From: a virus
IMG/VR virus record: IMGVR_UViG_3300028888_000124
Span: 2,407 to 66,406 of that record
DNA length: 64,000 nt
Reading direction: 5' to 3' (one strand)
Positions 14,514 through 44,686 of the stretch are shown piece by piece (within the stretch, counting starts at the first letter, position 1; each line of letters starts with the position of its first letter). A program made the translations under genes and the position numbers. The notes below the pieces were generated by a model. That model had not been told where the DNA came from and did not search any database. It worked only from the letters and a program-made list of their open reading frames with translations.

Positions 14514-15113
14514 ATGGAATTTATGTATGACTGGGAAGATCGTTCCAATAATTCTTGGAGCAAAATCTTTGGTTTCAACGCAAGTCCTGTCTATCAGAAA
14601 ATCATCCAGAAGCCGGATGAAATTGAAATCAAGGTAAGTATGCCCTACGTTCTCCCCCGTGTTGAACAGGTGATTTTCAATGAAGAATCCGCCACCACCG
14701 TGATCATCTGGGCGGACGGCAAAAAGACCATCGTCCATTGTGGCGAGGGTGAAACCTTTGACCGCTACACTGGTTTCATGGCCGCTGTGTGCAAGCGTCT
14801 GTTTGGCGGCACCACGACAGCAAAGAAGCTGATGAACTCTCTGGACAAACAGTATCAGGCCAAGCTCAAAGCCGAAGCAGAAGCGAAGGAGAAAGCCAAG
14901 CGGATGGCCGAGCAGGAAGAAGCCCGGAAGAAGGCCGAAGCCCGCCATGCCAAGGAAAATGATATGCTGCTGGAAGCAATGGTGGAGCATTACCTGCTGG
15001 AAGCGGAAGCCAAGCAGCGTGCCGCTGAGATCCTGGCTGCCCGCGATACCTCCGCGCTGACCGTTCCTTTTGAGGCTGCCGCCGAAGCAGAAGGAGAAAA
15101 AAATGAAAACTAA
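14514..15113 (+). CDS. hypothetical protein with an Ala/Glu/Lys-rich C-terminus
   Basis: ORF track. Confidence 0.5.
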   Translation: MEFMYDWEDRSNNSWSKIFGFNASPVYQKIIQKPDEIEIKVSMPYVLPRVEQVIFNEESATTVIIWADGKKTIVHCGEGETFDRYTGFMAAVCKRLFGGTTTAKKLMNSLDKQYQAKLKAEAEAKEKAKRMAEQEEARKKAEARHAKENDMLLEAMVEHYLLEAEAKQRAAEILAARDTSALTVPFEAAAEAEGEKNEN

Positions 15114-15666
15114 GTTTCTGATTGTCGTAGACATGCAGAATGATTTTGTCACCGGTTCCCTGGGCTCTCAAGAAGCCCAGGGGATCGTTTCCAATGTGGT
15201 AAAGCGGATTGAAAATGCCAGAGAAAACGGCTGGTCTATCTACGCCACGCAGGATACCCATTACGACGATTACCTTGAAACGCAGGAAGGAAAGAAGCTT
15301 CCCGTCCCGCATTGCGTGATCGGAACGGAGGGCTGGGAGCTGGCTCCCGCTGTAGCGGATTGCCTGGAAAAGGAGCCCTTCATGTGCTATGAAAAGAATA
15401 CGTTTGGCAGCGTGAATCTGGCCGAGGATCTTGCCGAGATCATTCACACCGGAGATTTTGACGAGCCTGAATGCGAGATCGAATTGATCGGCCTGTGCAC
15501 GGATATCTGCGTGGTGTCCAACGCTTTGCTTTTGAAAGCCTATCTGCCTGAAGCAAACATTTCCGTCAATGCTTCCTGCTGTGCTGGGGTCACACTGGAA
15601 AAGCACAAGGCCGCACTGGAAGTAATGAGGTCCTGCCACATTAAAGTAATTGAAGGAGAAGAATAA
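15103..15666 (+). CDS. pncA: nicotinamidase / isochorismatase-family cysteine hydrolase (PncA-like)
   Basis: VVDMQNDF, conserved Lys and LCTDICV catalytic Cys motifs. Sits in an operon with nadE, nadD and pncB. Confidence 0.7.
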   Translation: MKTKFLIVVDMQNDFVTGSLGSQEAQGIVSNVVKRIENARENGWSIYATQDTHYDDYLETQEGKKLPVPHCVIGTEGWELAPAVADCLEKEPFMCYEKNTFGSVNLAEDLAEIIHTGDFDEPECEIELIGLCTDICVVSNALLLKAYLPEANISVNASCCAGVTLEKHKAALEVMRSCHIKVIEGEE

Positions 15667-16454
15667 TGTACGATTTTGACCCCGTGGAAACTCGTGATAT
15701 GTTGGTGGCGGGCATCCACCGTATTGCCCGTCAAGGCGGATTTAACAAAGTAGTTATCGGTATTTCTGGCGGAAAGGATTCTACTGTGGCTGCTGCTCTG
15801 TGCGTTCGCGCTCTTGGCAAACAAAATGTGTATGGGGTGCTGTTGCCGGATGGTGTACAAGATGACATTGATGACAGCTATAAAGTTTGTGAAACTCTTG
15901 GCATTCCTTACACAATCATCAATATTGATGAAATGCATGACTCCTTAAAAAATGGAATCATTCTTTCTCTTGACCACAATCACAATATGTCGATTCCATT
16001 TTCCGAAGAAGCTGACATCAACGTGGCTCCCCGCCTTCGTATGACGGTGCTTCGATATATCACGCAAGCATTGGGCGCTCGATTAGCCGGCACTGGAAAT
16101 CTTTCCGAAATGACCGTCGGGTATTGCACAAAAGACGGCGATACCTCCTGCGATTTCTCTGTATTGGGCGGATTAACCAGCATTGAAGTTGTTCAGGTTG
16201 GCTTGACCATGCCTGAGATTCCCCGTGAATTGGTGCTCAAAACGCCCTCCGACGGTTTGTCTGGTATGAGTGATGAAGAAAAGCTGGGTGTTTCCTACGA
16301 GGATATTCATAAGTATATTCGCGGCCTCAAAGGCGTTCCTGAAGATGTGAAGGAAAAGATTTGCAAGCTTCAGGATAGAAGTTCGCACAAGCGCCGTTGG
16401 CCTCCTATTGCTTCTTATACGGTTCACGGGAATAATCTTTGGGAGCCATTTTAA
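15666..16454 (+). CDS. nadE: NH3-dependent NAD+ synthetase
   Basis: PP-loop GISGGKDST; 262 aa. Confidence 0.85.
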   Translation: MYDFDPVETRDMLVAGIHRIARQGGFNKVVIGISGGKDSTVAAALCVRALGKQNVYGVLLPDGVQDDIDDSYKVCETLGIPYTIINIDEMHDSLKNGIILSLDHNHNMSIPFSEEADINVAPRLRMTVLRYITQALGARLAGTGNLSEMTVGYCTKDGDTSCDFSVLGGLTSIEVVQVGLTMPEIPRELVLKTPSDGLSGMSDEEKLGVSYEDIHKYIRGLKGVPEDVKEKICKLQDRSSHKRRWPPIASYTVHGNNLWEPF

Positions 16455-16463
16455 GGAGGCCGT

Positions 16464-17111
16464 ATGAAAAAAGTTTTGGCGTATTGCGGCGCGTTTAATC
16501 CGCCAACAAATGCCCATGTCAATCTTGCGGAATTGGCTTTGAAAGAAACGGGACGGGAACAGGTGGTTTTCGTCCCATCTAAAGCTGAATATATTGTGGA
16601 TGAACAAAAAAAAGAGTATGCGTATGAAGATGCTTTGCGGCTGAATATGCTGGAAGACTTGGCGCTTACTCGCCCATGGATGCATATATGCCGTCATGAT
16701 ATGGAAGGCGAAACACAGCCTCGCACTTACGAAACTTTGTGTTGGCTGAAAGAGCAGGGATATGATCCCGCTTTGCTGATTGGTTCGGATGTGCTTGAAA
16801 GCATGGAAAGAGAATGGAAGAACGCTGATAAGATCGCGCAGGAGTTTGGCATTGTTTGCCTGACAAGAAGTACCCTTCAGTTACCAGATGCCTATCAAGA
16901 TGACGCTTTTCTTGCTCCGCTGCTTCCGCGCATCACTTTTGTCCATTCGCCGGAAGAATATTTGTTGAAGTCATCCACTGGTGCACGCTACCAATATGAT
17001 CAATCCATTCGCTATTGGGAAGGGCTTTGCGATATTGTTCCGCCAGAAGTGGCTGCTTATTTGCTAAAAGATTTTGTGGATATTTTATTAGGAGGTTCTC
17101 ATGAAGCTTGA
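16464..17111 (+). CDS. nadD: nicotinate-nucleotide adenylyltransferase (NadD / NMNAT family)
   Basis: CGAFNPPTNAH nucleotidyltransferase motif; 215 aa. Confidence 0.75.
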   Translation: MKKVLAYCGAFNPPTNAHVNLAELALKETGREQVVFVPSKAEYIVDEQKKEYAYEDALRLNMLEDLALTRPWMHICRHDMEGETQPRTYETLCWLKEQGYDPALLIGSDVLESMEREWKNADKIAQEFGIVCLTRSTLQLPDAYQDDAFLAPLLPRITFVHSPEEYLLKSSTGARYQYDQSIRYWEGLCDIVPPEVAAYLLKDFVDILLGGSHEA

Positions 17112-18318
17112 GCCTATTATTATTTCTTTGCTGGATACTGACCTATATAAATTTAACATGAATCAGGTCATGTTTCATCACCACACGGATTTGTGCGGTA
17201 CTTATGTATTTAAATGCCGAAACAAGGGCGTTCGATTTACACCTGAAATGCTGGATGAGATCAATACACAGATCGATCATTTGTGCACGCTGACATTCCA
17301 GGAAGATGAATTGAATTATCTACGTTCCATCCGTTTTATCAAGCCTGATTATGTTGAGTTTTTGCGCCTGTGGCGTCCCATCCGTGATTATGTGTTTACC
17401 GCTTTGAAGGAGGATACGGGCGAACTGATTGTTCAAGTGAAAGGTCCGCTGTTCTCCGCCATGCAGTTTGAAATCTATCTATTGGAAATCATTAACGAGG
17501 TTTATTTTGCTTTCCAATACAAGGATTATTATGTTGGCATGACAATGGAAGCTGTCAATCGGTTGGATAAAAAGATCGGCGGTTTCATTACCGGACAATA
17601 CACTTTTAAATTTGCCGAATTTGGATGCCGCCGCCGTTGGAACCGAAACTGGGAAGACCGTGTGGTGGAACGCTTTGCCACAGAAACAAATAACATGGTT
17701 GGCACCAGCAACGTGTACCTTGCCAAGAAATATGGACTTACGCCTATTGGCACTTACGCCCATGAATATGTTCAAATGTATCAGGGTATTGACAAAATTC
17801 CTTTGGCATATACCAATTACTATGCGCTAAAGGATTGGTACAATGAATACAAGGGCGATAACGGCACCGCGCTGACCGATACTATCACCACCGATTTGTT
17901 CCTATTGGATTTTGACCGTTCTATGTGCAACAACTTTACCGGCGTTCGTCATGACAGCGGCGATCCCTATGTATGGGGAGAAAAGATCATTGCCCATTAT
18001 CAGAAGTACGGCATCGACCCCAAGACCAAGACGCTGTTATTCTCCGACTCTCTGAATTTCGATAAAGCCCAGGCTTTGTACGATCATTTCAAAGACAGGG
18101 CGCGGGTATCCTTTGGTATCGGCACGTTTGTTTCCAATGATACCGGTGTTGAGCCGCTGAATATTGTGATCAAGCTGCAGGAGGTCAATGGAAAACCTGT
18201 TGCTAAGCTGAGTGATTCCTTGGGCAAAACCATGTGTCAAGACGAAGAATATGTAAAGTATCTTCGCAGCGCGGTGCAATTCAGATTAGATAGAGAAGGA
18301 GCTGGCTATGGAACCTAA
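17101..18318 (+). CDS. pncB: nicotinate phosphoribosyltransferase
   Basis: N-terminal signature LLDTDLYKFNM typical of NAPRTase; 405 aa. Confidence 0.8.
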   Translation: MKLEPIIISLLDTDLYKFNMNQVMFHHHTDLCGTYVFKCRNKGVRFTPEMLDEINTQIDHLCTLTFQEDELNYLRSIRFIKPDYVEFLRLWRPIRDYVFTALKEDTGELIVQVKGPLFSAMQFEIYLLEIINEVYFAFQYKDYYVGMTMEAVNRLDKKIGGFITGQYTFKFAEFGCRRRWNRNWEDRVVERFATETNNMVGTSNVYLAKKYGLTPIGTYAHEYVQMYQGIDKIPLAYTNYYALKDWYNEYKGDNGTALTDTITTDLFLLDFDRSMCNNFTGVRHDSGDPYVWGEKIIAHYQKYGIDPKTKTLLFSDSLNFDKAQALYDHFKDRARVSFGIGTFVSNDTGVEPLNIVIKLQEVNGKPVAKLSDSLGKTMCQDEEYVKYLRSAVQFRLDREGAGYGT

Positions 18319-18677: not shown

Positions 18678-19472
18678 ATGTGCACGATTCCTGCCAATTT
18701 TAAATGGAGCTTTTCAAAATAGGAAAGCTATTCTCACTGTCCCATGATGTTCAAGCTGCATTATTTGGACGGGATCAAGGGAGATAACAATGCTTTTGCG
18801 CTGTACGGTTCGCTGTGCCATTCCCTCCTGGAGGATTATGAGAAAGGCAATATCCCCTCCTTTGCTTTGGCTGAGGAATATGAATCCCGCTATGATGGCA
18901 GCATTACTGCTCCGTGGCCGCCATTTCCCAAAGGCATGGCGCAAAAGTATTACGAGCAAGGGCTTCAGTATTTTGAATCCTTTGATGGGTTCGGCGATCA
19001 ATATGAAATCATTTCCGTAGAAGAAAAGTTTGAGCTGAACATTGAAGGATATCCTTTGGTTGGGCTGGCCGACCTGGTGCTCAGGGACAAAGAAACGGGT
19101 GAGATCACCGTCATCGATCATAAGTCCAAGTCCTCCTCCACCATGCAGAAGGATCTTCCCACTTACCGAAGGCAGCTTTATATCTATGCCGCTTACGTGA
19201 AAGAAAAGTTCGGCGTGTACCCCAAGTATTTGAAATTCAATTTGTTCCGGGAGAACGAATGGGTCACAGAAGAATTTGACCTGAACATGCTCAACGAAAC
19301 GATGAAGTGGGTGGTGGAAACGATTGAAAACATTTTGTTTGAAACGGATTGGAAGGTGTCGTGCTCGTCCTACTTCTGCCGCTTTGTCTGTTCAGTTTTC
19401 GATCATTGTCCCGCCAAGGAAGCGGTGCTGAATCCTCCGCCGAAAGAAAAGAAAGAGAAAAAGAATGAATAA
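18678..19472 (+). CDS. PD-(D/E)xK Cas4/RecB-like exonuclease with a Cys cluster; in-frame TAG at 18720
   Basis: RBS AAGGAG then ATG at 18678, in frame with track ORF 18744. N-terminus SFSK(TAG)ESYSHCP fits the S.S.L..Y..CP motif; QhxxY (YRRQLY) and C-terminal CxxxCxxxxxC. Confidence 0.7.
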
Positions 19473-20763
19473 AATAAAACAAGAACTCGAAGAAATCAGA
19501 GATTATTTTCTTCCTATCATGCAGTCCTCCGGTAAGGCAAAAGAACCGTTCATCATCGATTGCGTAAGCCATCGTCTCCCCCATCTTGCGCTGTATTTTC
19601 TTCTGAATCCTTCTTATGTCACGCATGTCGGGCCCAAGTCCTTTGAGAAAAAAAAAGACATCGAGCCGAATAAGTTTTATGAGTCGATCTTTGATATCAT
19701 CGATGACTTAAAATCTGTTCCCGCTGTGAATGACCAAATGATCGCCAATATTCACAATGCGTTCTGGGATCTCGGAGATATTAAACTATTTGCTTATCAG
19801 TTTATCTGCAAAGATATTTCCCTCGGCATCACGGCAAAGACAGTCAATAAAGTGATGGATGTGGAAGTGATTCCTGAATTCCGGTGCATGCTTGCCAATA
19901 AATACTTCGAGCATCCAGAGAAGGTGGAAGGAAAGCATTTCTATTTGACGGAAAAACTGGACGGTATTCGATGCATTGCCAAAGTGACACCCGAAGAAGT
20001 GAAATTATTTTCCCGACAAGGCCAGCCGATTGAAGGTTTATTGGATATCGAAGCCGAGCTGTTGGAAACAGCTTACCGTCTGGATAAATCCTTTGCTGTG
20101 GACGGCGAACTGCTGATAATTGACCGTGACAAGATCCCGTCCAAGGAACAGTATAAACGCACCACCATGATCGTGCGGAAGGATGGCGTGAAGCAGGGCG
20201 TTGCTTATAACGTTTTTGACATCCTGGATCTGGACGCTTTCGAGAACCGCCATTGCGAGATGCCGTATTATCAGCGCCGCCAAAGATTGGAAACCTATTT
20301 CCTTGACAAGACTTATGTAAAGGTTCTTCCTGTTTTGTACCACGGCAAAGATACTTCCAAGATCATGGAGCATTTGAATATCCAGCGCAAACTGGAGCAC
20401 GAAGGTGTTATGATCAATCTGGCGGATGAGTATTATCAGTTCAGCCGCACCAACGCCTTGCTCAAAGTAAAGGTGATGCAGGACTGCGACCTTGAAATCA
20501 CGGGCGTACAGGAAGGACAAGGCAAATTTGCCGGGACGCTTGGCGCATTGATCGTTGATTACAAGGGTACTCCCGTAGGCGTAGGCTCCGGCATCAGCGA
20601 TGAGATTCGCCGTATGATTTGGGCCGACCCTGACCAATACATTGGCCGCGTTGCTACCATTCAATACTTTGAAGAAACTAACGACGCGGATGGAAAACCA
20701 TCCATTCGTTTCCCCGTGTTCAAAGAACTGCGGGAAGAAGGAAAGGAAGTAAGCTATGAGTGA
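19465..20763 (+). CDS. ATP-dependent DNA ligase
   Basis: Motif I EKLDGIR (KxDGxR), motif III DGELL, motif IV EGVMI, motif V LLKVK. Confidence 0.8.
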   Translation: MNKIKQELEEIRDYFLPIMQSSGKAKEPFIIDCVSHRLPHLALYFLLNPSYVTHVGPKSFEKKKDIEPNKFYESIFDIIDDLKSVPAVNDQMIANIHNAFWDLGDIKLFAYQFICKDISLGITAKTVNKVMDVEVIPEFRCMLANKYFEHPEKVEGKHFYLTEKLDGIRCIAKVTPEEVKLFSRQGQPIEGLLDIEAELLETAYRLDKSFAVDGELLIIDRDKIPSKEQYKRTTMIVRKDGVKQGVAYNVFDILDLDAFENRHCEMPYYQRRQRLETYFLDKTYVKVLPVLYHGKDTSKIMEHLNIQRKLEHEGVMINLADEYYQFSRTNALLKVKVMQDCDLEITGVQEGQGKFAGTLGALIVDYKGTPVGVGSGISDEIRRMIWADPDQYIGRVATIQYFEETNDADGKPSIRFPVFKELREEGKEVSYE

Positions 20764-21295
20764 TTCGGAAAAGAAATACTACATTGATGGGCCGGTAACC
20801 ATCGAGCTCATAAAGTCTACACCCCAGAAAGCGTTTTCCAATCCATATTACACCGTCGAGCCTATCATGAAACGTGTTACGAGGGCTGAGTTTGAAGCGT
20901 GGATTAAAGCGTATCCTCGTGACCTTGATGTTGATGTATATGGCGCGTGTGATCCACCCGCAGTTTCATATAACGACTTTTCTCTGGCGGATCGTTGGCC
21001 TCACAGCATTGTTGCAAGAACGTATGCCTACGATGAAAAGCCGGGAAGCTATTATTATTTCCCCGAAGAACAGCGCCATTATTACGTGATGGTGAACTAC
21101 GAAGAAGTATTCGCCAGCAAGACAGGATATATGGCTGATCATTCGGGAGGCGATCCATTTATTGTTGGAACGTTGACAATCAGTGTTCCGAGCAATGAGA
21201 AAGGCGAGATTGTTGCAGAGTTTCATGATGTGAAGACTTGTACATTTGACGTGTTTGCGAATTCGCAGGCTGATGGAGGTGAACGAGATGCCTGA
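20756..21295 (+). CDS. hypothetical protein (179 aa)
   Basis: ORF track. Confidence 0.45.
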   Translation: MSDSEKKYYIDGPVTIELIKSTPQKAFSNPYYTVEPIMKRVTRAEFEAWIKAYPRDLDVDVYGACDPPAVSYNDFSLADRWPHSIVARTYAYDEKPGSYYYFPEEQRHYYVMVNYEEVFASKTGYMADHSGGDPFIVGTLTISVPSNEKGEIVAEFHDVKTCTFDVFANSQADGGERDA

Positions 21296-22067
21296 TTCTC
21301 TCGGCGACCGTATGAAGGGCTACGAAAATGTATCCCGTATTTATTTGCCGCGCCGCCTGCCCGTTATCATCCGGGTGGACGGCAGGGCATTTCATACTTT
21401 TACAAAGGGCTTTCAAAGGCCGTTTGATGAGGTGCTTGCCCAAGCAATGCGTGAAACCGCAATCGCGCTGTGCAAGGAAATCAGCGGCGCGAAGCTGGCG
21501 TACACGCAAAGCGATGAGATTTCTATTCTGGTAACCAATAACGACACGTTAGAAACTCAGCCTTGGTTTAATAATAACTTACAAAAATTAGTTTCTTTAT
21601 CTGCGTCTACTGCGACATTGGCTTTTGACAAGGCGTTTTATTGGGCCACAGTAACGTATAAGGGTGACGGACAAATGTTTCAAGTTTATGCAAAGGCATC
21701 CAAAACCGCCACATTTGATTCCCGTGCATTTGTTTTGCCTCCAGACGAAGTTACCAATTATTTTATCTGGCGGCAGCAGGACGCTGTCCGTAATTCTATC
21801 CAGATGGTTGCACAAAGCCTATATTCTCACAAGGAACTGCAAAACAAAAACTGCGATGACCTTCAGGAAATGATATTCCAAAAAGGCATCAACTGGAATC
21901 ATTATGAGCCCTGGAAAAAGCGTGGCATTTGTGTAAGAAAAAACGATATGGCGCTCATTGCGGGTGGTAAAGAAATATTACGTGGCACTTGGGAGCCGGA
22001 TTTCAACACACCTGTTTTTACCCAGGATCGTAACTATATCAACAACTTACTTCCAAAAGGAGATTAA
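21288..22067 (+). CDS. Thg1-like protein (tRNA-His guanylyltransferase family, 3-prime to 5-prime polymerase)
   Basis: IIRVDGRAFHTF and SDEIS motifs; ATG after GGAGGTGAACGAG, in the frame of track ORF 21246..22067. Confidence 0.7.
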   Translation: MPDSLGDRMKGYENVSRIYLPRRLPVIIRVDGRAFHTFTKGFQRPFDEVLAQAMRETAIALCKEISGAKLAYTQSDEISILVTNNDTLETQPWFNNNLQKLVSLSASTATLAFDKAFYWATVTYKGDGQMFQVYAKASKTATFDSRAFVLPPDEVTNYFIWRQQDAVRNSIQMVAQSLYSHKELQNKNCDDLQEMIFQKGINWNHYEPWKKRGICVRKNDMALIAGGKEILRGTWEPDFNTPVFTQDRNYINNLLPKGD

Positions 22068-22070
22068 CGA

Positions 22071-23090
22071 ATGACGCTTGATGAAATCAAAACTTAGGTC
22101 GCTTCACCGACCTACGACTTCCTGCGTACCGATCCCCATTTGCAGGGCCGCATGGCGATGCTGTGTCTTGGCGGTTCTCATGCCTATGGCACGAATACCG
22201 AAACGAGTGATCTGGATCTTCGGGGCTGCGCCTTGAACCGTCCTGAAGAACTGCTTGGCCTTTCCCATTTTGAACAAGTTCGCAACGACGAGCTGGACGT
22301 ATGTATCTATTCCTTCAATAAAATGGTGCCGCTCCTGTATGGCTGCAACCCTAACATCATTGAGATCCTGGGCTGTAAACCGGAGCACTATTTGTTCCTG
22401 TCGGATGTTGGGAAAGAGTTGATCAGCAACCGTCATATGTTCCTGTCTCAGCGGGCATCGTATACGTTTGGGGGCTATGCCTTTTCCCAGCTTCGCCGCC
22501 TGGAGAACGCTATTGCGCGGGACAAACTGCCGCAAGCGCAAAAGGAAGGCCACATCTGCAACAGTATCGAAAAGGTGATCCGTAACTTCAACACGGAAAG
22601 CCGCGCCAAACCCGTTTCCTATATGCTTTTCCTGGCCGATGCCGTACACGATGATCTTGAAAAGGAAACGTTCATCACCACCACATTGGATATGTATCCT
22701 GTTCGTGATCTCAAGGCTTTTGTGAATGACATCAACAATGTGATTAGGGATTATGAAAACGATTTGCACGGGCGCAACAAAAAGAAGGATGACCTCCATC
22801 TGAACAAGCACGCCATGCACCTTGTCCGATTGTATCTGATGGCGATTGATATCCTGGAAAAGGAAGAGATCATCACGTACCGCGAAGCTGACCACGATCT
22901 GCTGATGGATATCCGGCATGGGAAATATCAGCTTGAAGACGGCACGTTCGATTCTGCTTTCTTCGATATGGTCAACGACTTATCCAAGAAAATGGATTAC
23001 GCAAAGGCCAATACCTCCCTTCCCCGTTCGCCCGATATGAGACGCATTGAGGAATTTATGATTGAGGTCAATAAAAAATCAATTGTTTAA
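22071..23090 (+). CDS. nucleotidyltransferase (Pol-beta-like NTase fold, GS..DLDL); in-frame TAG at 22095
   Basis: RBS AAAAGGAG then ATG at 22071, in frame with track ORF 22140; GGSHAYGTNTETSDLDL motif. Confidence 0.65.
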
Positions 23091-23101
23091 GGAGAGCTTG
23101 A

Positions 23102-23941
23102 ATGAACTATACAGGCTATAAAACTGTTCGGTAGGACGATTCTTTGATTCCGACCCTCTACACAGAGAAGGATAAAAACTGGTTTGACTTATTGGAAAAT
23201 CAATATCTTTTGATTGTGGATGAAAATGGTGCGCCGGTTGACCGCTATAAGTGGCAGGATGGAAAGCATAAGGCGGTATATAAAAAGCCCGTTGAATCCA
23301 TGGCGATGGACAAGGTGAAGCCAAAAAACCCGGAGCAGGCATTTGCCCTGGATATGTTGCTTGATCCAACGATCACCGTGAAGGTTATGACTGGATCATT
23401 TGGTTCTGGCAAAACTATGCTGGCCTGCTGCGCCGCTTTCCAAATGATGCAGGCAACGCTGTATGATAAAATCGTTTGGATCAGAAACAACATCGAGGTA
23501 AAGGACACCAACTCCATCGGCGCTTTGCCCGGAACATATGCCGATAAAATGTCGGTTTGGGCCATGCCCCTGGCGGATCACCTGGGCGGCGTAGAGGAAC
23601 TGAACAAACAAATCATGTTCGGCAAGGTCGAGGTGGAGCACCTGGGTTTTCTTCGCGGACGCGATATCAAGAACAGCATTATCATTTGTTCGGAAGCCGA
23701 GCATTTGACCCGCGAGCATGTGCAGCTTCTGCTTGGCCGTGTGGCGGAAGGGTCTGTGCTGATTCTTGAGGGAGACTGGAAGCAGATCGATAAAAAGGCA
23801 TTTGAAAAGGACAACGGCCTGCACGCCGCCATTGACTGCCTGACGGGAAACCGCCTTTTTGGTTATGTTCATTTGAATGAATCCGTTCGCAGCGAGACCG
23901 CGAAGCTGGCTGACTTGCTGGATAAAAAAGAAGGAGATTAA
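23102..23941 (+). CDS. phoH: PhoH-like ATPase; in-frame TAG at 23132
   Basis: Walker A GSFGSGKT and ICSEAEHLT; RBS AAGGAG then ATG at 23102, in frame with track ORF 23144. Confidence 0.8.
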
Positions 23942-23945
23942 ACGA

Positions 23946-24560
23946 ATGTATATTGAAACGCCAAATCTGATTATTGATACACCGGAAAACAAACTCGCCC
24001 AGCCTGATGAAATCAGTTATTACGAATAGGAAAAGAAGCGAAAGCTGTTTCTGGATTATGATGTGAACGCGGATGTGATGGCCATTGTGCGGATGATTCT
24101 GCGCTGGAATATGGAAGACGCCGGAACCCCCCCCGAATCCCGCAAACCCATCTGGCTCTACATTGAATCCATTGGCGGCAACGCGATTTATATGTGGACT
24201 TTGATCGACGCGATCTTCGCCTCCGTTACGCCTGTGTATACTGTGAATATGGGGTTGGCTGCGTCCGCTGCTGGGCTCATCTTTATGGCGGGTTCCAAAC
24301 GATTCATGATGCCGCGTGCCAAGGTGATGATTCATGAAGGCTCCGCTTCCTTTGAAGGCGACGCGGGCAAGGTGCTGGATTTTTCCGATGCCTACAAAAA
24401 AGATTTGAAAGCAACCCGCGATTTTATCCTGGATCATACTTCCATTCCCAAGGCACAGCTCACCAAAAAACGAAGCAACGATTGGGAATTGGATTCTGCG
24501 CTTTGTTTGCAGTATCATGTGTGCGATCAGATCGTGCAAAGCCTGGAAGATATTCTATAA
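23946..24560 (+). CDS. ClpP-like serine protease subunit; in-frame TAG at 24027
   Basis: IESIGGNAIY..MGLAASAAG..MIHEGS is ClpP-like; RBS AAGGAG then ATG at 23946, in frame with track ORF 24063. Confidence 0.7.
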
Positions 24561-24570
24561 AAATTCTTGG

Positions 24571-24597
24571 CCCGGTGAAATCCGGGTCTTTTTTTGT
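24571..24597 (+). terminator. Rho-independent terminator (cccgg-tgaaat-ccggg plus T-run), merging into the TTTGTTTCCATTAT motif at 24593..24606
   Basis: Read directly from the sequence. Confidence 0.55.
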
Positions 24598-24650
24598 TTC
24601 CATTATAAGCGGATATCAATTTTTCAAATAACGATAAAGGAGCTTGAACG

Positions 24651-25091
24651 ATGATTTACCGTGAAGAAAAGATGAATCTGTTTTCTGTTCCCCAGGGTTA
24701 TATGCTGGCTCACTGCATCAGCGGTGACTTTGCTTTGGGCGCTGGCGTTGCCAAAGAAATGGACAGGGTATTCAATATGAAGGAGATGCTGAATCTTCTG
24801 TGGGGACCCATCAGCCCGATGAAGGATAAGTGGTCCGCCCCCTGCTGTCTCCCCTGTGCCAACGTGTTTAACCTGGTAACCAAAGAAAAATACTGGCATA
24901 AGCCTACGCTGGCCTCCCTTCGCACTGCGCTGGAAGAAATGTGTTCCCTCGCTGTGGAAATGGGCGTCACCAAAATTGCCATGCCCAAGATCGGCTGCGG
25001 CCTGGATCGCCTGGACTGGGAAAAAGTAAGCCCTATGATCCAGGAGATTTTCGCTGATACGGATATCGAAATTCTGGTGTGCGTATTATGA
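24651..25091 (+). CDS. macrodomain protein (ADP-ribose binding / processing)
   Basis: 146 aa with a macro-domain-like pattern (NLFSVPQGYMLAHCISGDFALGAGVA ... GVTKIAMPKIGCGLDRLDW). Confidence 0.6.
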   Translation: MIYREEKMNLFSVPQGYMLAHCISGDFALGAGVAKEMDRVFNMKEMLNLLWGPISPMKDKWSAPCCLPCANVFNLVTKEKYWHKPTLASLRTALEEMCSLAVEMGVTKIAMPKIGCGLDRLDWEKVSPMIQEIFADTDIEILVCVL

Positions 25092-25321
25092 GTGAAGACA
25101 AGTATGAAGGTTTGACCGTTGATTTCATTGACCGCCCGCTGCCTGAATCGCATCCCGATTTCGTGATGAGGATTAGCTGGTCCTGTCCGGGGCTTGGGTT
25201 TGGCACAGTGGATTTTATCTGGAGAGGCAACGATCTTCACGCTGATACGGAACATATGAGTAAAGCTTTCTTGGAGCGTCTGATGGCATTGGTGCTGCAG
25301 CGTGTGGTCATTGATGGTTGA
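25088..25321 (+). CDS. small hypothetical protein
   Basis: ORF track frame 25079..25321. Confidence 0.35.
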   Translation: MSEDKYEGLTVDFIDRPLPESHPDFVMRISWSCPGLGFGTVDFIWRGNDLHADTEHMSKAFLERLMALVLQRVVIDG

Positions 25322-25333
25322 GAGGAATACAAC

Positions 25334-26548
25334 ATGAAAGAACAAAGCGTTGTTTATCTGGTGAAGGTCGAGCCAGGAGCCAATAATAACAAATACTGGA
25401 AAGCAATGGCTCAAGGCGATCATTTCAACGTTGAGTATGGAAGGGTCGGCGGAACACCGCAGAAGTATTCCTATCCTATTTCCCAATGGAATAAAAAGTA
25501 CAACGAGAAGATAAAAAAAGGTTACGTTGACCGAACGGAATTGGTAGAGGATCTGATTGAAAAAGAAAAGCCCGCTACGCCGGATGGCTATCGTGCTATT
25601 GAAAACAAGGTGATCGCGGATATCGTGTCACGCTTGCAGGCCATGGCAAAGAAAGCGGTCAGCGAAAACTACACCATATCCTCCAGCAAGGTCACCATGG
25701 CAATGGTGTCTGCCGCTCAGGATCAATTAGCAAAGATGGCGGGCATGGCCGCCGCTTCCGTGGAAGAATTCAACCGCGCCTTGATTGAGCTGTTCGGTAT
25801 CATTCCCCGCAAGATGGGCCATGTATCATCCTATATTGCCACCAGCCAAAAGGAGTTTGGCCGTATTCTTGAACGCGAACAGGATCTGCTGGATGTGATG
25901 CGCGGTCAGGTGTATGTGCCGTCCAAGGAAAGCGAAATTGCCCCTCCTCCAAACGGTGAAGCCCACACGATCCTGGAAGAAAAGGGCCTTGTGTTTGAAG
26001 AAGTAACGGACGATGATATCGCCGTGATCAAATCCGCGCTTGGATCCTGTGCCGATAAATTCTGCCGCGCATGGCGAGTTACCAACCTGGCCACACAAAA
26101 ACGCTTTGATGAATATGTGCAGGGCGGCGTGAAGACAAAGCTTCTCTGGCACGGCTCCCGGAATGAAAACTGGTGGAGCATTGTGGGCAGCGGGCTGGTG
26201 TTGCGTCCCACCAATGCGGTCATCACCGGCAAGATGTTTGGCTATGGTATTTACTTTGCCACGAAAGCGCGAAAGTCTCTTGGGTACACCTCTCTTTCCG
26301 GCTCCTATTGGGCGCATGGTTCTTCCCCATCCGCGTTCATGGGGCTGTATGAAGTTGCCTACGGCAAGCCTTACGATGTGCATTCCTTTGATTCCAAATA
26401 TTATTCCCTGAATTATGAAGGGCTGCAGAAGATGTGTCCTGGGGCGAACTGCCTGCACGCGCACGAGGGCCAGATGCTTCGCAATGATGAAATCATTGTG
26501 TATCAGGAATGCCAAACGACAATCAAATATCTGGTGGAGCTCAAATAA
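25334..26548 (+). CDS. WGR-domain plus PARP catalytic-domain protein (H-Y-E triad present)
   Basis: N-terminal WGR-like YLVKVEPGANNNKYWKAMAQG..YGRVG; catalytic LLWHGSRNENWWSIVGSGL, GYGIYFATKA and NDEIIVYQ. Confidence 0.75.
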   Translation: MKEQSVVYLVKVEPGANNNKYWKAMAQGDHFNVEYGRVGGTPQKYSYPISQWNKKYNEKIKKGYVDRTELVEDLIEKEKPATPDGYRAIENKVIADIVSRLQAMAKKAVSENYTISSSKVTMAMVSAAQDQLAKMAGMAAASVEEFNRALIELFGIIPRKMGHVSSYIATSQKEFGRILEREQDLLDVMRGQVYVPSKESEIAPPPNGEAHTILEEKGLVFEEVTDDDIAVIKSALGSCADKFCRAWRVTNLATQKRFDEYVQGGVKTKLLWHGSRNENWWSIVGSGLVLRPTNAVITGKMFGYGIYFATKARKSLGYTSLSGSYWAHGSSPSAFMGLYEVAYGKPYDVHSFDSKYYSLNYEGLQKMCPGANCLHAHEGQMLRNDEIIVYQECQTTIKYLVELK

Positions 26549-26554
26549 TAAAAA

Positions 26555-26575
26555 GCCCGCGTTTTGCGGGCTTCA
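26555..26575. terminator. bidirectional hairpin agcccgc-gttt-tgcgggct
   Basis: Inverted repeat between convergent genes. Confidence 0.5.
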
Positions 26576-26577
26576 TT

Positions 26578-26952
26578 TTATGGATTCTGGCAAATATTTT
26601 TTATTTCCTCAACATCGCGTTTGATGTCGTAAGAAAGCTCGTTGGCTCTCATGAGGAGGCTGGCTTTGCCGTATGAAAAAGCCGAAAGAAACAGCAGCAG
26701 CATTCCTCCTGCAAAAACGATTGCTTTCATAGCAAGAACACCTGCGAGATATCCTGCTTTCAAACTTGCCTCTACCTGATAATTATATGCATCCCCTCCT
26801 ACATATGCTGCGCCCCTGTTTTTCATCCAATCATAGTCGTAGGCGTCGATACCGCTGTCTACACGCACGTATTTTTCCGGTACAGGATAAAGGATTCCAA
26901 ACCCAATCATTACCAACGCAACAATGATTCCCAGGACGGCCATGCCTTTCAT
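26578..26952 (-). CDS. small membrane protein (two TM segments)
   Basis: ATG after GAGGTGATACGA on the minus strand; same frame as track ORF 26578..27198. Confidence 0.5.
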   Translation of the reverse strand: MKGMAVLGIIVALVMIGFGILYPVPEKYVRVDSGIDAYDYDWMKNRGAAYVGGDAYNYQVEASLKAGYLAGVLAMKAIVFAGGMLLLFLSAFSYGKASLLMRANELSYDIKRDVEEIKNICQNP

Positions 26953-27066
26953 TCGTATCACCTCGTCATTTTTTATATCTTTTCTTTCGTCACTTTTTTC
27001 AATAATCCTGCCTTTGAAAACAATTATTGTTTTTGTTCCCATTTCTTTTAGAAAGGAAGTGGTTTT

Positions 27067-30000
27067 ATCTCTTATGTAAATTATCACCGCCATTCCCACT
27101 ATTCCAACATCATGCTGACTGATTCTGTTGCTACCAACGAGGACTATTGCAAGCGTGCAGTAGAGTTGGGCCACACCATTGTTTCCTCCTGCGAGCATGG
27201 AACACCCGGCGCGTACAGAGAAGTGTACGACCTTGCCAAGAAATACGGTTTACGCTGGCGGTATGTTGCCGAGGCTTATTTTGTGAAAGACCGCCTGACT
27301 GAGGATGAGAATGGCCGTCGTGACCGCAAGAATTGCCATTTGATTCTGGCAGCGAAAACCGCAAAGGGTATCGGTGATTTGAACGAAGTCCTCAGCGAGG
27401 CCAATATCTCCGGCTATTATTTCCGTCCCCGTGTGGATATGGAATTGCTGCTGCGCCTGGACCCCAGGGACGTATTTGTTACTACGGCCTGCATCGGCGG
27501 TATCTGGGTATATGGCTATAACAGCGACAAAGAAACGGGCGAATGGTCCTATGACTTTACCGAGCCCGACGCGCTTGTCCGTCAGCTTCACGCCCACTTT
27601 GGCGATAGCTTCATGCTCGAAGTCCAGTCTCACAATGTTGAAAAACAGAAAGCGGTCAACGCCCATATCCTTGATCTTTACCGCAAAGAAGGCATCAAGA
27701 TCATCGCGGGCATGGACAGCCATTTCATTTACCCGGAGGACAAAGCGCTGCGGGATATGCGGCTTGAAGCCAATGGTCTGCATTACGAGGATGAAGAAGG
27801 ATGGGCATTGGATTATCCTTCCGATGAAGAAGCTTACCTCCGCTTTGAGGAACAGGGCGTCTTGTCTCCCGCGCAGATTCAGGAAGCGATGGAGAACACA
27901 AACATCTTCCTTGACTTTGAGGACGTTGAATTTGACAAAGGCAAAAAGCTGCCGACCATTTATCCCGATCTGACCCAAGAAGAACGGAATGAAAAATACC
28001 GTCAGCTCGTGCTGTCCAAGTGGGATGAATACAAGAAGACAGTTCCGCAGGAAAGGTGGCCGGAGTACGAAGCTGGAATCAAATATGAAATGGACACCAT
28101 CACCTCCACGAACACCAGCGACTATTTCCTCCTGGATTACGAGTGGATTCGCAAAGCCAAAGAAATGGGCGGGCAATTGACAAAAACCGGAAGAGGTTCG
28201 GCTCCGTCCTATTTCACCAACACACTGCTTGGCTTCTCTTCCATTGACCGCTTTGCCTTGCCCATCACCATGTATCCTGACCGTTTCATTTCCGCTGACC
28301 GCCTAAAGGCAGGGTCGTTGCCAGATATAGATATGAACGTTTCCGATCAGGCTTTGTTTGGCGAAGCGATGACCGAAGTCATGGGGGAATGGCATTGCGC
28401 TCCCATGGTTGCTTATGGCACCTTGAAGAGACTGGCTGCGTGGAAGATGTATTGCCGCGCTGCCAACGTGCCATTTGATGTAGCCAATGAACTTTCGGAT
28501 AAGCTGAAAGCTTATGAACTGGATTATAAACATGCCGATGAAGATGAAAAGGATGAGATCAACGTCGAGGATTATGTGCCGGAAAAGTACCGCGAGTATT
28601 TGAAGGCTTCTGAAAAATACCTTGGGATGGTTGATTCCATTTCTCCTCACCCTTGTGCTTATCTGATTTGCAATCAGGATATTCGGCGCGAGGTTGGTAT
28701 CTTTCGCATCAACTCCAAGACGAGCAAAAAGAAGGTTGTCTATGCCGCGTTTATTGACGGCGCTACTGCCGATGCGTATGGCTATCTAAAGAACGACGAT
28801 CTCCAGGTCACGGTTGTGAAGCTGAACGATGAAATCTATAAGCGCATTGGGATTCCCCAACCTTCCGTGCCTGAGCTTTTGAAGATGACGGATGGGGATC
28901 AGCAGACGTGGGATATGTACGCGCAAGGATGGACGCTGGGCTTGAACCAGGCCGAGAAAGAAAAGTCCACCGAAAAAGTGATGCGCTATAAGCCCAAGAA
29001 TATTTCTGAACTTTCTGCTTTTGTGGCTGGTATCCGTCCCGCTTTTCAAAGCATGCTTCCCAAGCTGCTGAATCGTGGAAGCTTTTCCTATGATATTCCG
29101 GCTTTGGATAAACTGCTTCAAACCAAAGAACTCCCTCAATCATTTATTCTATACCAGGAGCAGATGATGAAGGTTCTCCAGTGGGGTGGATTCTCAGCTC
29201 CTGAGTCCTATGCGGCCATTAAAGCCATTGCAAAAAAACATCCTGAAAAAGTTCTTCCGCTGAAAGAAAGATTCATGGAGGGTTTTGCAAAGCGTCTGAT
29301 CGAAGAAGAAAATACGGAAGCAAGCGTTGCCAAAGAAACGACGGATAAAGTTTGGACGATCATTGCAGATGCTTGCGGCTATGGGTTCAATAGCAGCCAC
29401 TCCACCGCAGTTGCTCTGGACTCCCTCTATACTGCCTGGGCAAAGGCACACCACCCTTATGAGACTTACGTGTCGCTCCTTTCCCTTTACGCAGAGAAAA
29501 AAGATAAGGACCGCATCGCCAAAGCCAAGGTGGAAATGAAGAAAGCCTTTGGCATCAGTATCGCCCCCTGCCGCTTCCGTCAGGATAACCGCAGCTACTT
29601 TGTGGATAAAGACGCGCACACCATATCTGACGCGCTCACATCCGTCAAAGGCATTTCATTTGCCGTGGCCGGGAAGCTGTACCAGATGCGGAACAACCAA
29701 TACGATTCCGCCGTGGATCTGTTCTATGATCTTGAGGTGAACACCTCCATCAATTCCGCTGTGGTAAAAACTCTGATCCAGATGGGTTACTTTGAAGAGT
29801 TCGGCAAGGCCGGAAAGCTGCTCAAGCTCTATCAGGAATTCCGTGAAGGCGAAAGTAAGTTTTCCAAGACTCATGTGAAAACTACACAGGAAAAGCGGCT
29901 GGATACACTTCGGCAAATTGAAAAGAAATTGCCGGATGAAGATATTCCCATGCAGGATCAAATGGCGTTTGAGGTAGAGTTTTACGGTACACCACTGTCC

Positions 30001-30359: not shown

Positions 30360-31451
30360 ATGAGAAAATAGGCGAGCATTAAAACCATTACCAGCATTGC
30401 CCCGATTGAAGGAAAAGATTTGATCGGGCTGGCTGCCGTGGATGGCTGGGGTGTGATCGTGCAGAAGAGTCAGTTCAAGCCAGGCGATAAATGCGTGTAC
30501 GTTGAAATTGATTCCGTCATGCCTGAGAAGCCGGAGTTTGAATTTCTGCGCAAGAGAGATTTTCGCATTCGCACCATGAAGATGGCTGGCGTGATCAGTC
30601 AGGGCATCTGCTTCACGTTGGACATTCTTCCGCCCAAGAAAAACGGAAAAGAATATGCTCTGGACGAAGATGTGACGGAGGTCATCGGTGTTACCCAGTA
30701 CGAGCCTACAATGGATAAGGAACAGAACACCGAGAAAAAAGAACAGACAAAGAAATACCCCAAATGGCTGATGCGGTTTGCCTGGTTCCGGCGATTGGTA
30801 CTGGGGCCTCAAAAGAAAAAGGGCGGCTTCCCATCTTTCATTTCAAAAACAGACGAAGTGCGTATTCAGAATATCCCTCATATTCTGCAGGATAAGCGGG
30901 AATGGATCGCCACTGAAAAGGTGGATGGACAGAGCGGTACGTTTGCGCTGGTTCGCCATAAGCGCCGCATTCCCTTTATGAAGGACAAGTTTGAATACAT
31001 CGTCTGCTCCCGGAACTTGCGTTTGGCAAAGCCGGACAGTTCTTCTTACTGGCGTGTGTCCGAACGGTACAAGATCGAAAACGTTCTTGAGAATATGATT
31101 GGAGATCGTGAGTGGATCGCTATTCAGGGCGAGTGCGTTGCCCCCAACGTGCAGGGCAACAAATACAAAGTTACCGAGCCCGACCTGTATGTGTTCAATT
31201 TGATCTATCCCACCGGAAGGCTGGGAAGCAAGGTCGCCAAGTCAATCATCGAAAACCACGGCATGAAGTTTGTTCCCATCGTGGCTGAGGATTATGTGCT
31301 GCCGGATACCGTACAGGAAGTATTGGATTATGCTCATGGCCAGAGTGTATTGGGTGACACGCTGCGAGAAGGCATTGTTTTTCGCAGTAAAGACGGCGTG
31401 CATTCATTCAAAGCTGTCGATCCATTATTCCTGATCAAATACAACGAATAA
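30360..31451 (+). CDS. ATP-dependent RNA ligase (KxDG nucleotidyltransferase; N-terminal domain of the MRKLASI-type); in-frame TAG at 30369
   Basis: ATG at 30360 after GAAAGGA, in frame with track ORF 30420. N-terminus MRK(TAG)ASIKTI..PIEGKD; EKVDGQSGT motif. Confidence 0.7.
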
Positions 31452-37572: not shown

Positions 37573-37779
37573 ATGATTAGTCATCGATGTTATTGTGACC
37601 GATGCGGCAGTCTTGCTCCGCTCTCAATTTTTCATGTTGATGGTAATACAACGGCACAGTATACTCTCCTCCTTGAAGATACTGGTGACGAAAACTGGGC
37701 CTTAAATCGGATAAAATGTCATCTTTGCGAAAACTGTTATGCACAGATTCGTCGATTTATTAAAGGAGACAGCGAATAA
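37573..37779 (+). CDS. small zinc-finger protein
   Basis: ORF track; CxxC pairs. Confidence 0.4.
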   Translation: MISHRCYCDRCGSLAPLSIFHVDGNTTAQYTLLLEDTGDENWALNRIKCHLCENCYAQIRRFIKGDSE

Positions 37780-37789
37780 TATGCCTCAT

Positions 37790-38515
37790 GTTTTTGTTAC
37801 CGGGGATAAACATGGTGATTACAAGGATGTAGAACGCTGGTGCCTCAAATGGAATACTTCAAAGGATGATCTATTGGTCGTTCTTGGCGATAACGGTGTG
37901 AACTACTGGGGCCCACATCGGGATAAGAAGCTCAAGAACTATCTCTCCGCTCTGCCAATCACCTTCTTTATGATCAAAGGCAATCATGACCAGCGTCCGT
38001 CCACAAAACTGTATCACATTTCCGACGAAGTTCACCCGCTTGTAAAAGGGCCCTGCTATGTGGAACCGGATTATCCGTCGCTCCTGTTCTCCGCTATGTA
38101 TGGCGGCTATGAATTCCTGTGCAGCGATCTATGGAAGAAAGCTTTTGTTCTTGGCGGCGCATACAGCGCGGATAAGTGGTATCGCCTGGAAATGCAAGCG
38201 CTGGGTCACAGCGGGTATCGCTGGTTTGCGGACGAACAGATGAACAATTGGGAAATGAAGGAAGCCTCCTCCATGATCCATGCTTTCGAGCCGGACTTTG
38301 TTTTGTCCCACACCTGCCCGTTCCGCTACATACCGAGAGATATGTTTTTGCCTATGGTAGATCAGTCCACCGTAGACGATACCATGGAGCATTGGATGGA
38401 CATCGTTGAAGATGAGGTGCCTTATCAGAAATGGTACTGCGGCCACTGGCACACAGACAGAACGGTGGATCAAATGCGGTATATGTATCATGATATTATT
38501 TTGTTAGGAGAATAA
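37790..38515 (+). CDS. calcineurin-like metallophosphoesterase
   Basis: GDKHGD, GDNGVNYWG and GNHD motifs. Confidence 0.65.
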   Translation, partial: VFVTGDKHGDYKDVERWCLKWNTSKDDLLVVLGDNGVNYWGPHRDKKLKNYLSALPITFFMIKGNHDQRPSTKLYHISDEVHPLVKGPCYVEPDYPSLLFSAMYGGYEFLCSDLWKKAFVLGGAYSADKWYRLEMQALGHSGYRWFADEQMNNWEMKEASSMIHAFEPDFVLSHTCPFRYIPRDMFLPMVDQSTVDDTMEHWMDIVEDEVPYQKWYCGHWHTDRTVDQMRYMYHDIILLGE

Positions 38516-44623: not shown

Positions 44624-44658
44624 TTTTAAGGGCGGGTGAAAATCCGCCCCGTTTTTGT
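44624..44658 (+). terminator. Rho-independent terminator (gggcggg-tgaaaat-ccgcccc plus GTTTTTG), followed by the TTTGTTTCCATTAT motif at 44654..44667
   Basis: Read directly from the sequence. Confidence 0.5.
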
Positions 44659-44686
44659 TTCCATTATGGGTGTAGGAGGGCAACGA

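Follow-up and report, generated by a model that had tools for sequence, protein, structure and literature searches.

A conserved PARP-TARG1 gene pair in phages of Clostridia, a candidate module for reversible ADP-ribosylation

Two neighbouring genes encoding a predicted writer and a predicted eraser of ADP-ribose were analysed in a stretch of 64,000 nucleotides (nt), hereafter called the window, which covers positions 2,407 to 66,406 of the IMG/VR virus record IMGVR_UViG_3300028888_000124. The first gene (24651..25091, + strand) codes for a TARG1/OARD1-type macrodomain ADP-ribosyl hydrolase of 146 amino acids (aa), recognised through Pfam, PHROG and PDB matches, and the second (25334..26548, + strand) for a PARP2/3-like ADP-ribosyltransferase (ART) of 404 aa. 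We refer to the two genes together as the cassette. A phage origin, as assumed in the original prediction made on this DNA, was borne out by PHROG matches, by 253 related IMG/VR viral contigs and by the large-phage genes found nearby.

The macrodomain gene is preceded by a ribosome-binding site, AAAGGAG. Between it and the PARP gene lies a 77-aa ORFan, an open reading frame (ORF) at 25088..25321 (+), whose ATG overlaps the macrodomain stop codon (ATGA) and whose own stop codon is separated from the PARP start by 12 nt, GAGAGGAA. Two terminator-like hairpins, found by a consensus scan and both pattern matches only, mark the edges of the unit. The upstream hairpin (24569..24588, +; 7-bp stem with 6 G-C pairs, TTTTTTT coming after it) sits 3' of a ClpP-like gene whose stop codon ends at 24560. 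The downstream one, a two-way hairpin (26553..26573, both strands; 9-bp stem with 6 G-C pairs) with the sequence AAGCCCGCGTTTTGCGGGCTT, begins 5 nt past the PARP stop codon. A promoter scan gave no signal above the shuffled background. With this arrangement the three genes are predicted to be transcriptionally coupled, and translational coupling is probable. The 77-aa ORF has no Pfam or PHROG match, and a comparison with 5.8 billion proteins yields no more than 7 clusters of relatives, all of 77-81 aa. A homologue 46% identical to it (E=3e-23) occupies the same position in locus L137; the ORF is restricted to some sub-lineages, being absent from L135 and having an unrelated 114-aa ORF in its place in L008. 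Judged by this distribution it is a lineage-specific insert, and its product could assist the cassette as an accessory factor.

The original prediction had placed a macro-domain-like ORF at 24651..25091, which was right and could be made more precise. The Pfam Macro profile (PF01661) scored 29.2 bits, above its cut-off of 22 (E=9.8e-07), over residues 67-129 only. The ORF also matched phrog_335 (E=6e-24), and in a search of the PDB its residues 7-144 aligned with the human TARG1/OARD1 structures 4j5r and 2eee (E=2e-26), the identity to human TARG1 being 42% over 140 residues. The catalytic pair of TARG1 consists of Lys84 and Asp125 (PMC8120803, PMC6397177). It aligns with Lys78 of the phage protein (24882-24884, +), within a VTK motif, and with Asp119 (25005-25007, +), within a GCGLDRL motif that is identical in both proteins; the window copy thus has the complete TARG1 Lys/Asp pair. 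By these alignments the protein is a full-length TARG1/OARD1 relative and not a generic macrodomain.

For the second gene, the presence of a WGR and a PARP domain in one ORF was upheld by Pfam. The PARP catalytic profile (PF00644) scored 77.5 bits over residues 242-404 (cut-off 26.7; E=1.3e-21) and the WGR profile (PF05406) 28.8 bits over residues 7-69 (cut-off 22), and phrog_23333, labelled 'polymerase', matched over the full length (E=1.4e-58). The WGR domain (25352-25540, +), with Y35-G36-R37, is followed by a helical linker at residues ~85-192 (25586-25909, +) and by the ART domain (26057-26545, +). Using a profile of 58 family sequences, residues 7-403 could be aligned with PARP2 chains composed of WGR, helical domain (HD) and ART (E=2e-32). 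The 58 sequences reach down to 27% identity and include PARPs of Cellulophaga, Klebsiella and Xanthomonas phages at 27-35%; the WGR domain was detected by Pfam in 57 of them. The H-Y-E triad announced in the original prediction is intact: H273 (26150-26152, +), Y307 (26252-26254, +) and E386 (26489-26491, +) are in register with H862, Y896 and E988 of PARP1, and E386 falls opposite the PARP2 glutamate in the end-to-end profile alignment. The motifs HGS (residues 273-275) and NDEIIVY (384-390, including E386) had been quoted correctly, whereas the tyrosine motif is Y-x-x-Y (G-Y304-G-I-Y307-F) and not Y-x-Y; the second stacking tyrosine is Y318. The profiles of the phage family and of PARP2 pair lLwHGsR with LLWHGSR, GiYfa with GIYFA, KSlgYt with KSANYC and rNdEiivy with NYNEYIVY. 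Residues H273, G274, R276, Y307, K314, S315, Y318 and E386, together with G36 and R37 of the WGR domain, are invariant in the 58 aligned sequences, and 90 of 91 loci keep the H, Y, Y and E residues, the remaining one having a truncated ORF. Foldseek matches with a probability of 1.00 also speak for a PARP-type catalytic domain. On the strength of these alignments the protein is assigned to the PARP1-3 clade as a minimal PARP made of WGR, helical linker and ART with an intact triad. The H-Y-E triad is also present in PARP3 and PARP4, both of which are mono-transferases. As read here, the triad is compatible with mono- or poly-ADP-ribosylation, polymer synthesis not being predicted by H-Y-E alone. 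We regard the identity of both proteins as almost certain.

Relatives of this PARP number thousands in metagenomes; the 120 closest are all unnamed. A nucleotide search of positions 24000-27100 against 50,697 phage records returned no match, so that there is no isolated close relative. A scan of IMG/VR showed that 253 viral contigs encode PARP relatives, of which 80 loci (PARP identity 55-79%, contigs up to 290 kb) were used for the conservation counts. Searched with a hidden Markov model of TARG1-like macrodomains, 77 of these 80 loci had a TARG1-like gene on the same strand as PARP, and in 71 it was directly upstream, overlapping PARP or separated from it by at most 15 nt. As the macrodomain played no part in the locus search, this result is not circular, and de-replicating the set to 46 PARP clusters at 90% identity leaves the pattern intact. 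Among the GTDB genomes, a TARG1-like gene is found less than 1 kb upstream of PARP in 14 of the 16 loci having a PARP identity of at least 43% and sufficient flanking sequence; L106 has it 4.5 kb upstream, and L101 lacks it. The divergences of macrodomain and PARP are correlated over 48 de-replicated pairs (Mantel r=0.65, p<=0.0005), the macrodomain diverging faster than PARP. The co-occurrence of writer and eraser noted originally in this one phage is therefore a property of the family: the pairing is, by these counts, conserved and co-inherited over a wide group of phages, and a functional coupling of the two enzymes appears very probable.

The pairing has limits. No TARG1-like gene was found beside the GTDB PARPs of 32-42% identity, including those of Microscillaceae and Cytophagaceae, and no known eraser beside the macro-less PARPs of L060, L088, L101, L108, L111 and L064. 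The ~150-aa neighbours of PARP in Cellulophaga, Klebsiella and Xanthomonas phages were considered as candidate macrodomains and rejected, none being recognised as such by Pfam. In L064 (8205-8678), L101 (7204-7674) and L088 (8247-8660), a common ORF of 137-157 aa lies directly 3' of PARP; the three copies share 47-66% identity, and Pfam gives no convincing match for them. L088 and L101 are two of the three PARP loci without a TARG1-like gene, and L064 has a weak macrodomain downstream only. We also observed a second, very abundant PARP clade (L107; P0128-P0247), ~45% identical to the window PARP, with more than 120 clusters, all at least 90% mutually identical, on contigs of ~210-228 kb, in the jumbo-phage range. 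Some of its members are labelled 'poly [ADP-ribose] polymerase' by JGI, and L107 has a macrodomain gene upstream.

The window corresponds to the replication and nucleotide-metabolism region of a large phage. It contains genes for a primase-helicase, a PD-(D/E)XK nuclease, a DNA ligase of the ATP-dependent type (19465-20763), DnaE, ThyX, NrdD and a dUTPase, together with Thg1-like, RlaP, PhoH and ClpP-like genes, two RNA ligases and two tyrosine integrases (6151-7074 and 52026-53210, both +). Immediately upstream of the macrodomain, 9 of the de-replicated loci have a DNA ligase gene, five encoding NAD-dependent LigA and four ATP-dependent enzymes, which are two unrelated ligase types; in other loci the gene at this place encodes DnaE or an ERCC4 nuclease. 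The order in Cellulophaga phage phi4:1 is PARP, one ORF, ATP ligase. The hosts of the family are Clostridia. Copies are carried by the isolates Ruminococcus sp. YE282 and Lacrimispora amygdalina, by many metagenome-assembled genomes (MAGs) of Ruminococcus, Oscillospiraceae and Lachnospiraceae and, within a 3.1-Mb scaffold, by Lachnospiraceae TWA4. Copies in unexpected MAG bins (Treponema, Absconditabacterales, Pacearchaeota, Nanoarchaeia) are probably mis-binned phage contigs.

The reading that we favour, with confidence and doubt about equally balanced, is that the cassette is a DNA-break-activated, reversible and self-resetting ADP-ribosylation module serving phage DNA metabolism; its DNA-break and repair role, taken separately, is the more tentative part. 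In PARP1-3 the WGR domain binds breaks and the helical domain autoinhibits, and PARP2 and PARP3 need 5'-phosphorylated ends (PMC10789625). By extension of this family biochemistry, the phage WGR domain would bind broken DNA, probably at a nick or end carrying a 5'-phosphate, and binding would lift the inhibition exerted by the helical domain. PARP would then use nicotinamide adenine dinucleotide (NAD+) to place ADP-ribose on acidic residues of its own chain and of proteins close by. Without HPF1, PARPs modify Glu and Asp. As neither HPF1 nor PARG was found, the mark would probably be a Glu/Asp ester, carrying mono-ADP-ribose or short chains. The PARG signature GGG-x6-8-QEE does not occur in any frame of the window (motif search only), which favours mono-ADP-ribose, short chains or en-bloc removal by the macrodomain, and no PARG was found among the Pfam-scanned ORFs of the window. 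TARG1 cleaves Glu/Asp-linked ADP-ribose and removes poly(ADP-ribose) en bloc (PMC6397177, PMC8120803). The TARG1-like enzyme of the phage would cut the ester, taking off mono-ADP-ribose or whole chains, and this removal would reset the system and limit both NAD+ drain and self-toxicity. Considering the gene neighbourhood, the cassette would serve replication, repair or ligation of phage DNA and not early host takeover.

The recurrent proximity of a ligase also allows a variant in which the substrate is a nucleic acid. Here PARP would cap the terminal phosphates of phage DNA, at its nicks or ends, or those of RNA under repair, and the TARG1-like enzyme would remove the cap before ligation; such a reversible cap would block host exonucleases or premature ligation. 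PARP2 and PARP3 are known to ADP-ribosylate terminal phosphates in vitro. This variant would explain why the ligase-macrodomain-PARP order recurs with two unrelated ligase types, and why the eraser comes from a family that cleaves phosphate-linked ADP-ribose at nucleic-acid ends (PMC8120803). We consider it rather improbable.

Several observations weigh against the break-activated module, and the first concern its sensor. The WGR tryptophan is replaced by a tyrosine (Y35), a substitution that is usual in bacterial PARPs (PMC5966428). The Pfam PARP_reg profile has no match in the window PARP and a match in only 1 of the 58 family members, and an hhalign comparison of the isolated segment 76-240 with the PARP2 helical domain, although it leans towards the presence of this domain, gave a low probability (P=0.0036, 80 columns). 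The AlphaFold2 (AF2) models are mediocre, with a pLDDT of 63.9 for the first and 68.8 for the second (pTM 0.60), and the NAD+ pocket loop (292-331) has low confidence also in the second. On the other side, the family profile places the motif 'FGIIPRKMG' opposite 'YTRIPHDFG' of the PARP2 helical region, and AF2 predicts helices at residues 92-192 (pLDDT ~68-91). In addition, the ten best Foldseek matches are all PARP2 or PARP1 WGR-HD-ART chains on DNA breaks (E=2e-13 to 5e-11), and Foldseek also aligned ~370-390 columns to HD and ART fragments. The Clostridiales PARP clade has been described as WGR plus PARP_cat with 'no defined PARP_reg', although its models show helices (PMC5966428, García-Saura 2018), and the phage PARP agrees with this clade in both respects. 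Because the profile, Pfam, hhalign, AF2 and Foldseek results are mixed, a regulatory helical domain between WGR and ART is taken as likely but unproven, and autoinhibition by it as plausible and not established.

The second group of adverse observations concerns placement. Eight loci share the backbone PD-(D/E)XK/DnaE/ERCC4/(LigA)/ThyX/NrdD and have neither cassette gene within 7 kb; their DnaE identity is 35-46%, and they come from a single-sequence DnaE search that returned 9 loci and is not a census. With such backbones lacking the cassette and with a slot that varies, the pair appears to travel as a unit between replication and repair slots. The cassette is therefore accessory, which is equally typical of counter-defence cargo, and its proximity to ligase or DnaE may mean only that auxiliary nucleotide-metabolism genes are mostly kept in this module. 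No macrodomain neighbour was detected for the phage PARPs outside the family (Cellulophaga, Xanthomonas, LR756500), and our survey of the literature returned no activity, target or expression data for any phage PARP.

An accessory cassette also resembles much host-manipulation cargo. PARP could thus act on host proteins in the manner of T4 Alt and Mod, with the macrodomain shielding phage or self proteins or reversing the marks later. Host takeover is the published guess for the PARPs of jumbo phages (PMC7824862), and two precedents are the ADP-ribosyltransferases of T4 (PMC8120803) and the anti-CRISPR AcrIF11, itself an ART. However, WGR and helical linker form the break-sensing apparatus of DNA-repair PARPs (PMC10789625), and T4-type enzymes have neither. 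Moreover, the genes are located inside the replication/repair module, with PARP often at most 15 nt after a ligase-macrodomain pair, and gaps of this size leave no space for a separate early promoter. We consider host takeover unlikely; it is compatible with the break-activated module.

The macrodomain itself supplies the last adverse observation. The TARG1 lysine is retained in 81 of the 85 cassette macrodomains, but the position of Asp125 is occupied by D in 49, N in 20, G in 14, E in 1 and A in 1. The Asn and Gly variants, which keep the Lys and account for about a third of the cassettes, occur in L005-L007, L012 and others with the motifs CCGRNGL and CCGRGGL; their Lys-only active site resembles that of DarG, and the substitution may reflect that, in the same operon, mechanism or substrate has changed. 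This brings in another explanation, in which the macrodomain is a counter-defence eraser that strips DarT-type ADP-ribose off phage DNA or destroys ADP-ribose-derived immune signals, PARP being a passenger or having a separate role. Besides these Lys-only sites, it would fit the matches of the window macrodomain to the DarG models of PADLOC (E=2.9e-13, covering only 71-142 of 329 model positions) and NCBIfam (E=2.8e-11, covering only positions 72-145 of 338) and to the DarG structures 5m31 and 5m3i. TARG1-like macrodomains stand alone in 82 phage records, and neutralisation of DarT2 by phage macrodomains is proven, for example for AdfM of PhiKZ (PMC13309987). Against it, the window protein is far closer to TARG1 than to DarG, whose structures match far less well (E ~1e-4 to 1e-5), or to AdfM, for which the match is marginal (E=0.016). 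The NCBIfam DarG score, 43.3 bits, falls far short of the required 250, and the near-obligate operon coupling with PARP and the co-divergence would be left unexplained. We thus judge the counter-defence eraser improbable. Assignment of the protein as a DarG antitoxin proper was rejected, the score being below the cut-off, the C-terminal half being absent and the neighbouring gene being a PARP and not DarT.

The compactness of the unit also suggests, by analogy with DarTG, a toxin-antitoxin or abortive-infection-like system. PARP would be a toxin triggered by DNA ends, for instance those of a superinfecting phage, that depletes NAD+ or modifies an essential target, and the macrodomain its antitoxin. 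The hydrolase indeed comes first, the genes overlap or are tightly spaced and move as a unit, and in the window this unit has its own flanking terminators. Copies in isolate genomes, one of them inside the 3.1-Mb scaffold, and the integrases of the window point in the same direction. Nevertheless, PARP has no match among 5027 defence-system models (PADLOC), and in most lineages the cassette follows a ligase, ERCC4 or DnaE gene at ~15 nt, which implies co-transcription with lytic replication genes. Its position inside the module holds over PARP identities of 43-100%, and it is not found in lysogeny or moron regions. This explanation is in our opinion highly improbable, and the break-activated module is retained as the preferred one.

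An NAD+ synthesis operon had been reported alongside the pair. It is present in the window, in a more complete form than first stated, although not adjacent to the cassette, and its link to the pair is not conserved. Its four genes encode an isochorismatase-family PncA-like protein (15070-15666, +; 97 bits in Pfam, and matched weakly by the nicotinamidase model of NCBIfam), NadE (15666-16454, +; scoring over the TIGR00552 cut-off), a NadD-like protein (16464-17111, +; best match, below cut-off) and PncB (17101-18318, +; 434 bits, cut-off 270). As annotated, they form a route from nicotinamide to NAD+, the deamidating Preiss-Handler salvage. The operon lies ~7 kb upstream of the macrodomain-PARP pair, inserted between the primase-helicase region and the PD-(D/E)XK gene, and is absent from that position in relatives at 88%, 82% and 78% PARP identity. 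None of 18 PncB-bearing viral contigs belongs to the 80 PARP contigs; in these 18 related loci, PncB is accompanied by a PncA-like gene in 15, NadE in 9 and NadD in 2. A functional link between operon and PARP was therefore rejected; their co-occurrence in the window is suggestive, as PARP releases nicotinamide, but the linkage is not a conserved one. None of the known phage NAD+ reconstitution pathways, NARP1, NARP2 and NARP3 (PMC13464706), matches this operon, which may be an undescribed phage route for rebuilding NAD+.

Other features of the window were recorded. Between the PARP terminator and dnaE, an ORF on the opposite strand (26578-27198, -) has no Pfam, PHROG or PADLOC match; its C-terminal half is hydrophobic by eye, suggesting a membrane protein, and its listed start overlaps dnaE, the true start being probably internal. 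Close relatives carry a DnaE intein (PF14890; 1324 aa versus 1059 aa in the window) and an NrdD gene split by inserted ORFs (L137 12320-16294; L135 17372-20332), which points to active selfish elements in this module. An RNA-repair set (10438-11991, 21246-23941, 30420-31451, 37739-38515 and 44636-45628) comprises DUF2828/DUF7788, a Thg1-like 3'-5' polymerase, an RlaP nucleotidyltransferase, PhoH, an RNA ligase with a PHA02142 OB domain, a metallophosphatase and a T4 Rnl1-like RNA ligase, and suggests a defence against host tRNA-cleaving nucleases. No tRNA gene was found in the 64-kb window. Beyond a strand switch near 54 kb, BspA-type leucine-rich-repeat/DUF6273 and CotH-like genes occupy 59004-63911 (-).

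PARP signalling holds a central place in the repair of eukaryotic DNA and in cancer therapy. To our knowledge, PARP assays in bacteria are limited to two enzymes, and we found none reported for a phage PARP. The cassette offers a minimal writer-eraser pair of ~400 aa and ~146 aa, devoid of zinc fingers, BRCT, HPF1 and PARG, that is widespread in the phages of gut and rumen Clostridia, and its presence in cultured strains makes its function directly testable. According to our results, the Clostridiales PARPs and the scarce, mostly Firmicutes TARG1s listed as 'bacterial' in earlier surveys (PMC5966428, PMC8120803) would be largely phage-borne and probably correspond to this phage or prophage cassette, which bears on the movement of eukaryote-like enzymes between the domains of life. 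Phages with PARP would consume NAD+ and, in this window, also rebuild it, which places them within the NAD+-centred conflict between phage and host.

The closest eukaryotic counterparts of the writer are human PARP2 and PARP3, which have the same WGR-HD-ART order and share with it the motifs NNNKY, (W/Y)GRVG, IP..(F/M)G, LLWHGSR, GIYFA, KS..Y and NE.IVY, at an overall identity of only ~20%. The phage protein differs from them in having no N-terminal tail, a Tyr for the WGR Trp and a shorter helical region (four main helices, ~100 residues, below PARP_reg detection), and its ART loop before the Glu strand is ~20 residues shorter than in PARP2. Unlike theirs, its gene shares an operon with its own eraser. 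Among bacterial enzymes, CdPARP (C. difficile CD160) and HaPARP (Herpetosiphon) have the same WGR-(helical)-ART arrangement with H-Y-E and are active in vitro, HaPARP in a DNA-dependent manner (PMC5966428, PMC8120803). Their partner is a PARG encoded elsewhere in the genome, whereas that of the phage PARP is a TARG1-type macrodomain of the same operon.

On the eraser side, human TARG1/OARD1 and FmTARG1 are, like the phage protein, single macrodomains of ~150 aa with a Lys/Asp pair; the phage protein differs in being phage-encoded and operon-linked to a PARP. FmTARG1 of Fusobacterium mortiferum lies in a polymorphic-toxin-like operon of a genome without any PARP (PMC6397177), and the TARG1 family also removes O-acetyl-ADP-ribose (PMC6397177, PMC8120803). 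DarTG and AdfM share with the cassette the logic of writer and macrodomain eraser, the TARG1/DarG branch and the catalytic Lys. In DarTG, however, the writer is DarT, whereas the phage writer is a PARP-clade enzyme with WGR, and the 146-aa macrodomain has no counterpart of the toxin-binding C-terminal half of DarG.

Phage PARPs and viral TARG1-like macrodomains have been catalogued before (PMC4245714, PMC7824862). The PARPs of Cellulophaga phi4:1, Klebsiella FBKp34, Xanthomonas XacN1 and Xoo-sp13 belong to the same family and architecture (phrog_23333) at 24-37% identity, and are already annotated 'poly(ADP-ribose) polymerase' in their GenBank records. Their hosts are Bacteroidota or Proteobacteria, whereas those of the window family are Clostridia, and they have no adjacent TARG1-like gene, a 'phosphatase' 2.4 kb upstream in FBKp34 being a weak macrodomain. 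In the literature we came across neither an experiment on a phage PARP nor any account of an operon joining PARP and TARG1. The two proteins are thus additions to known families; what is new is the conserved operon, the replacement of PARG by a TARG1-type eraser and the ligase-adjacent placement.

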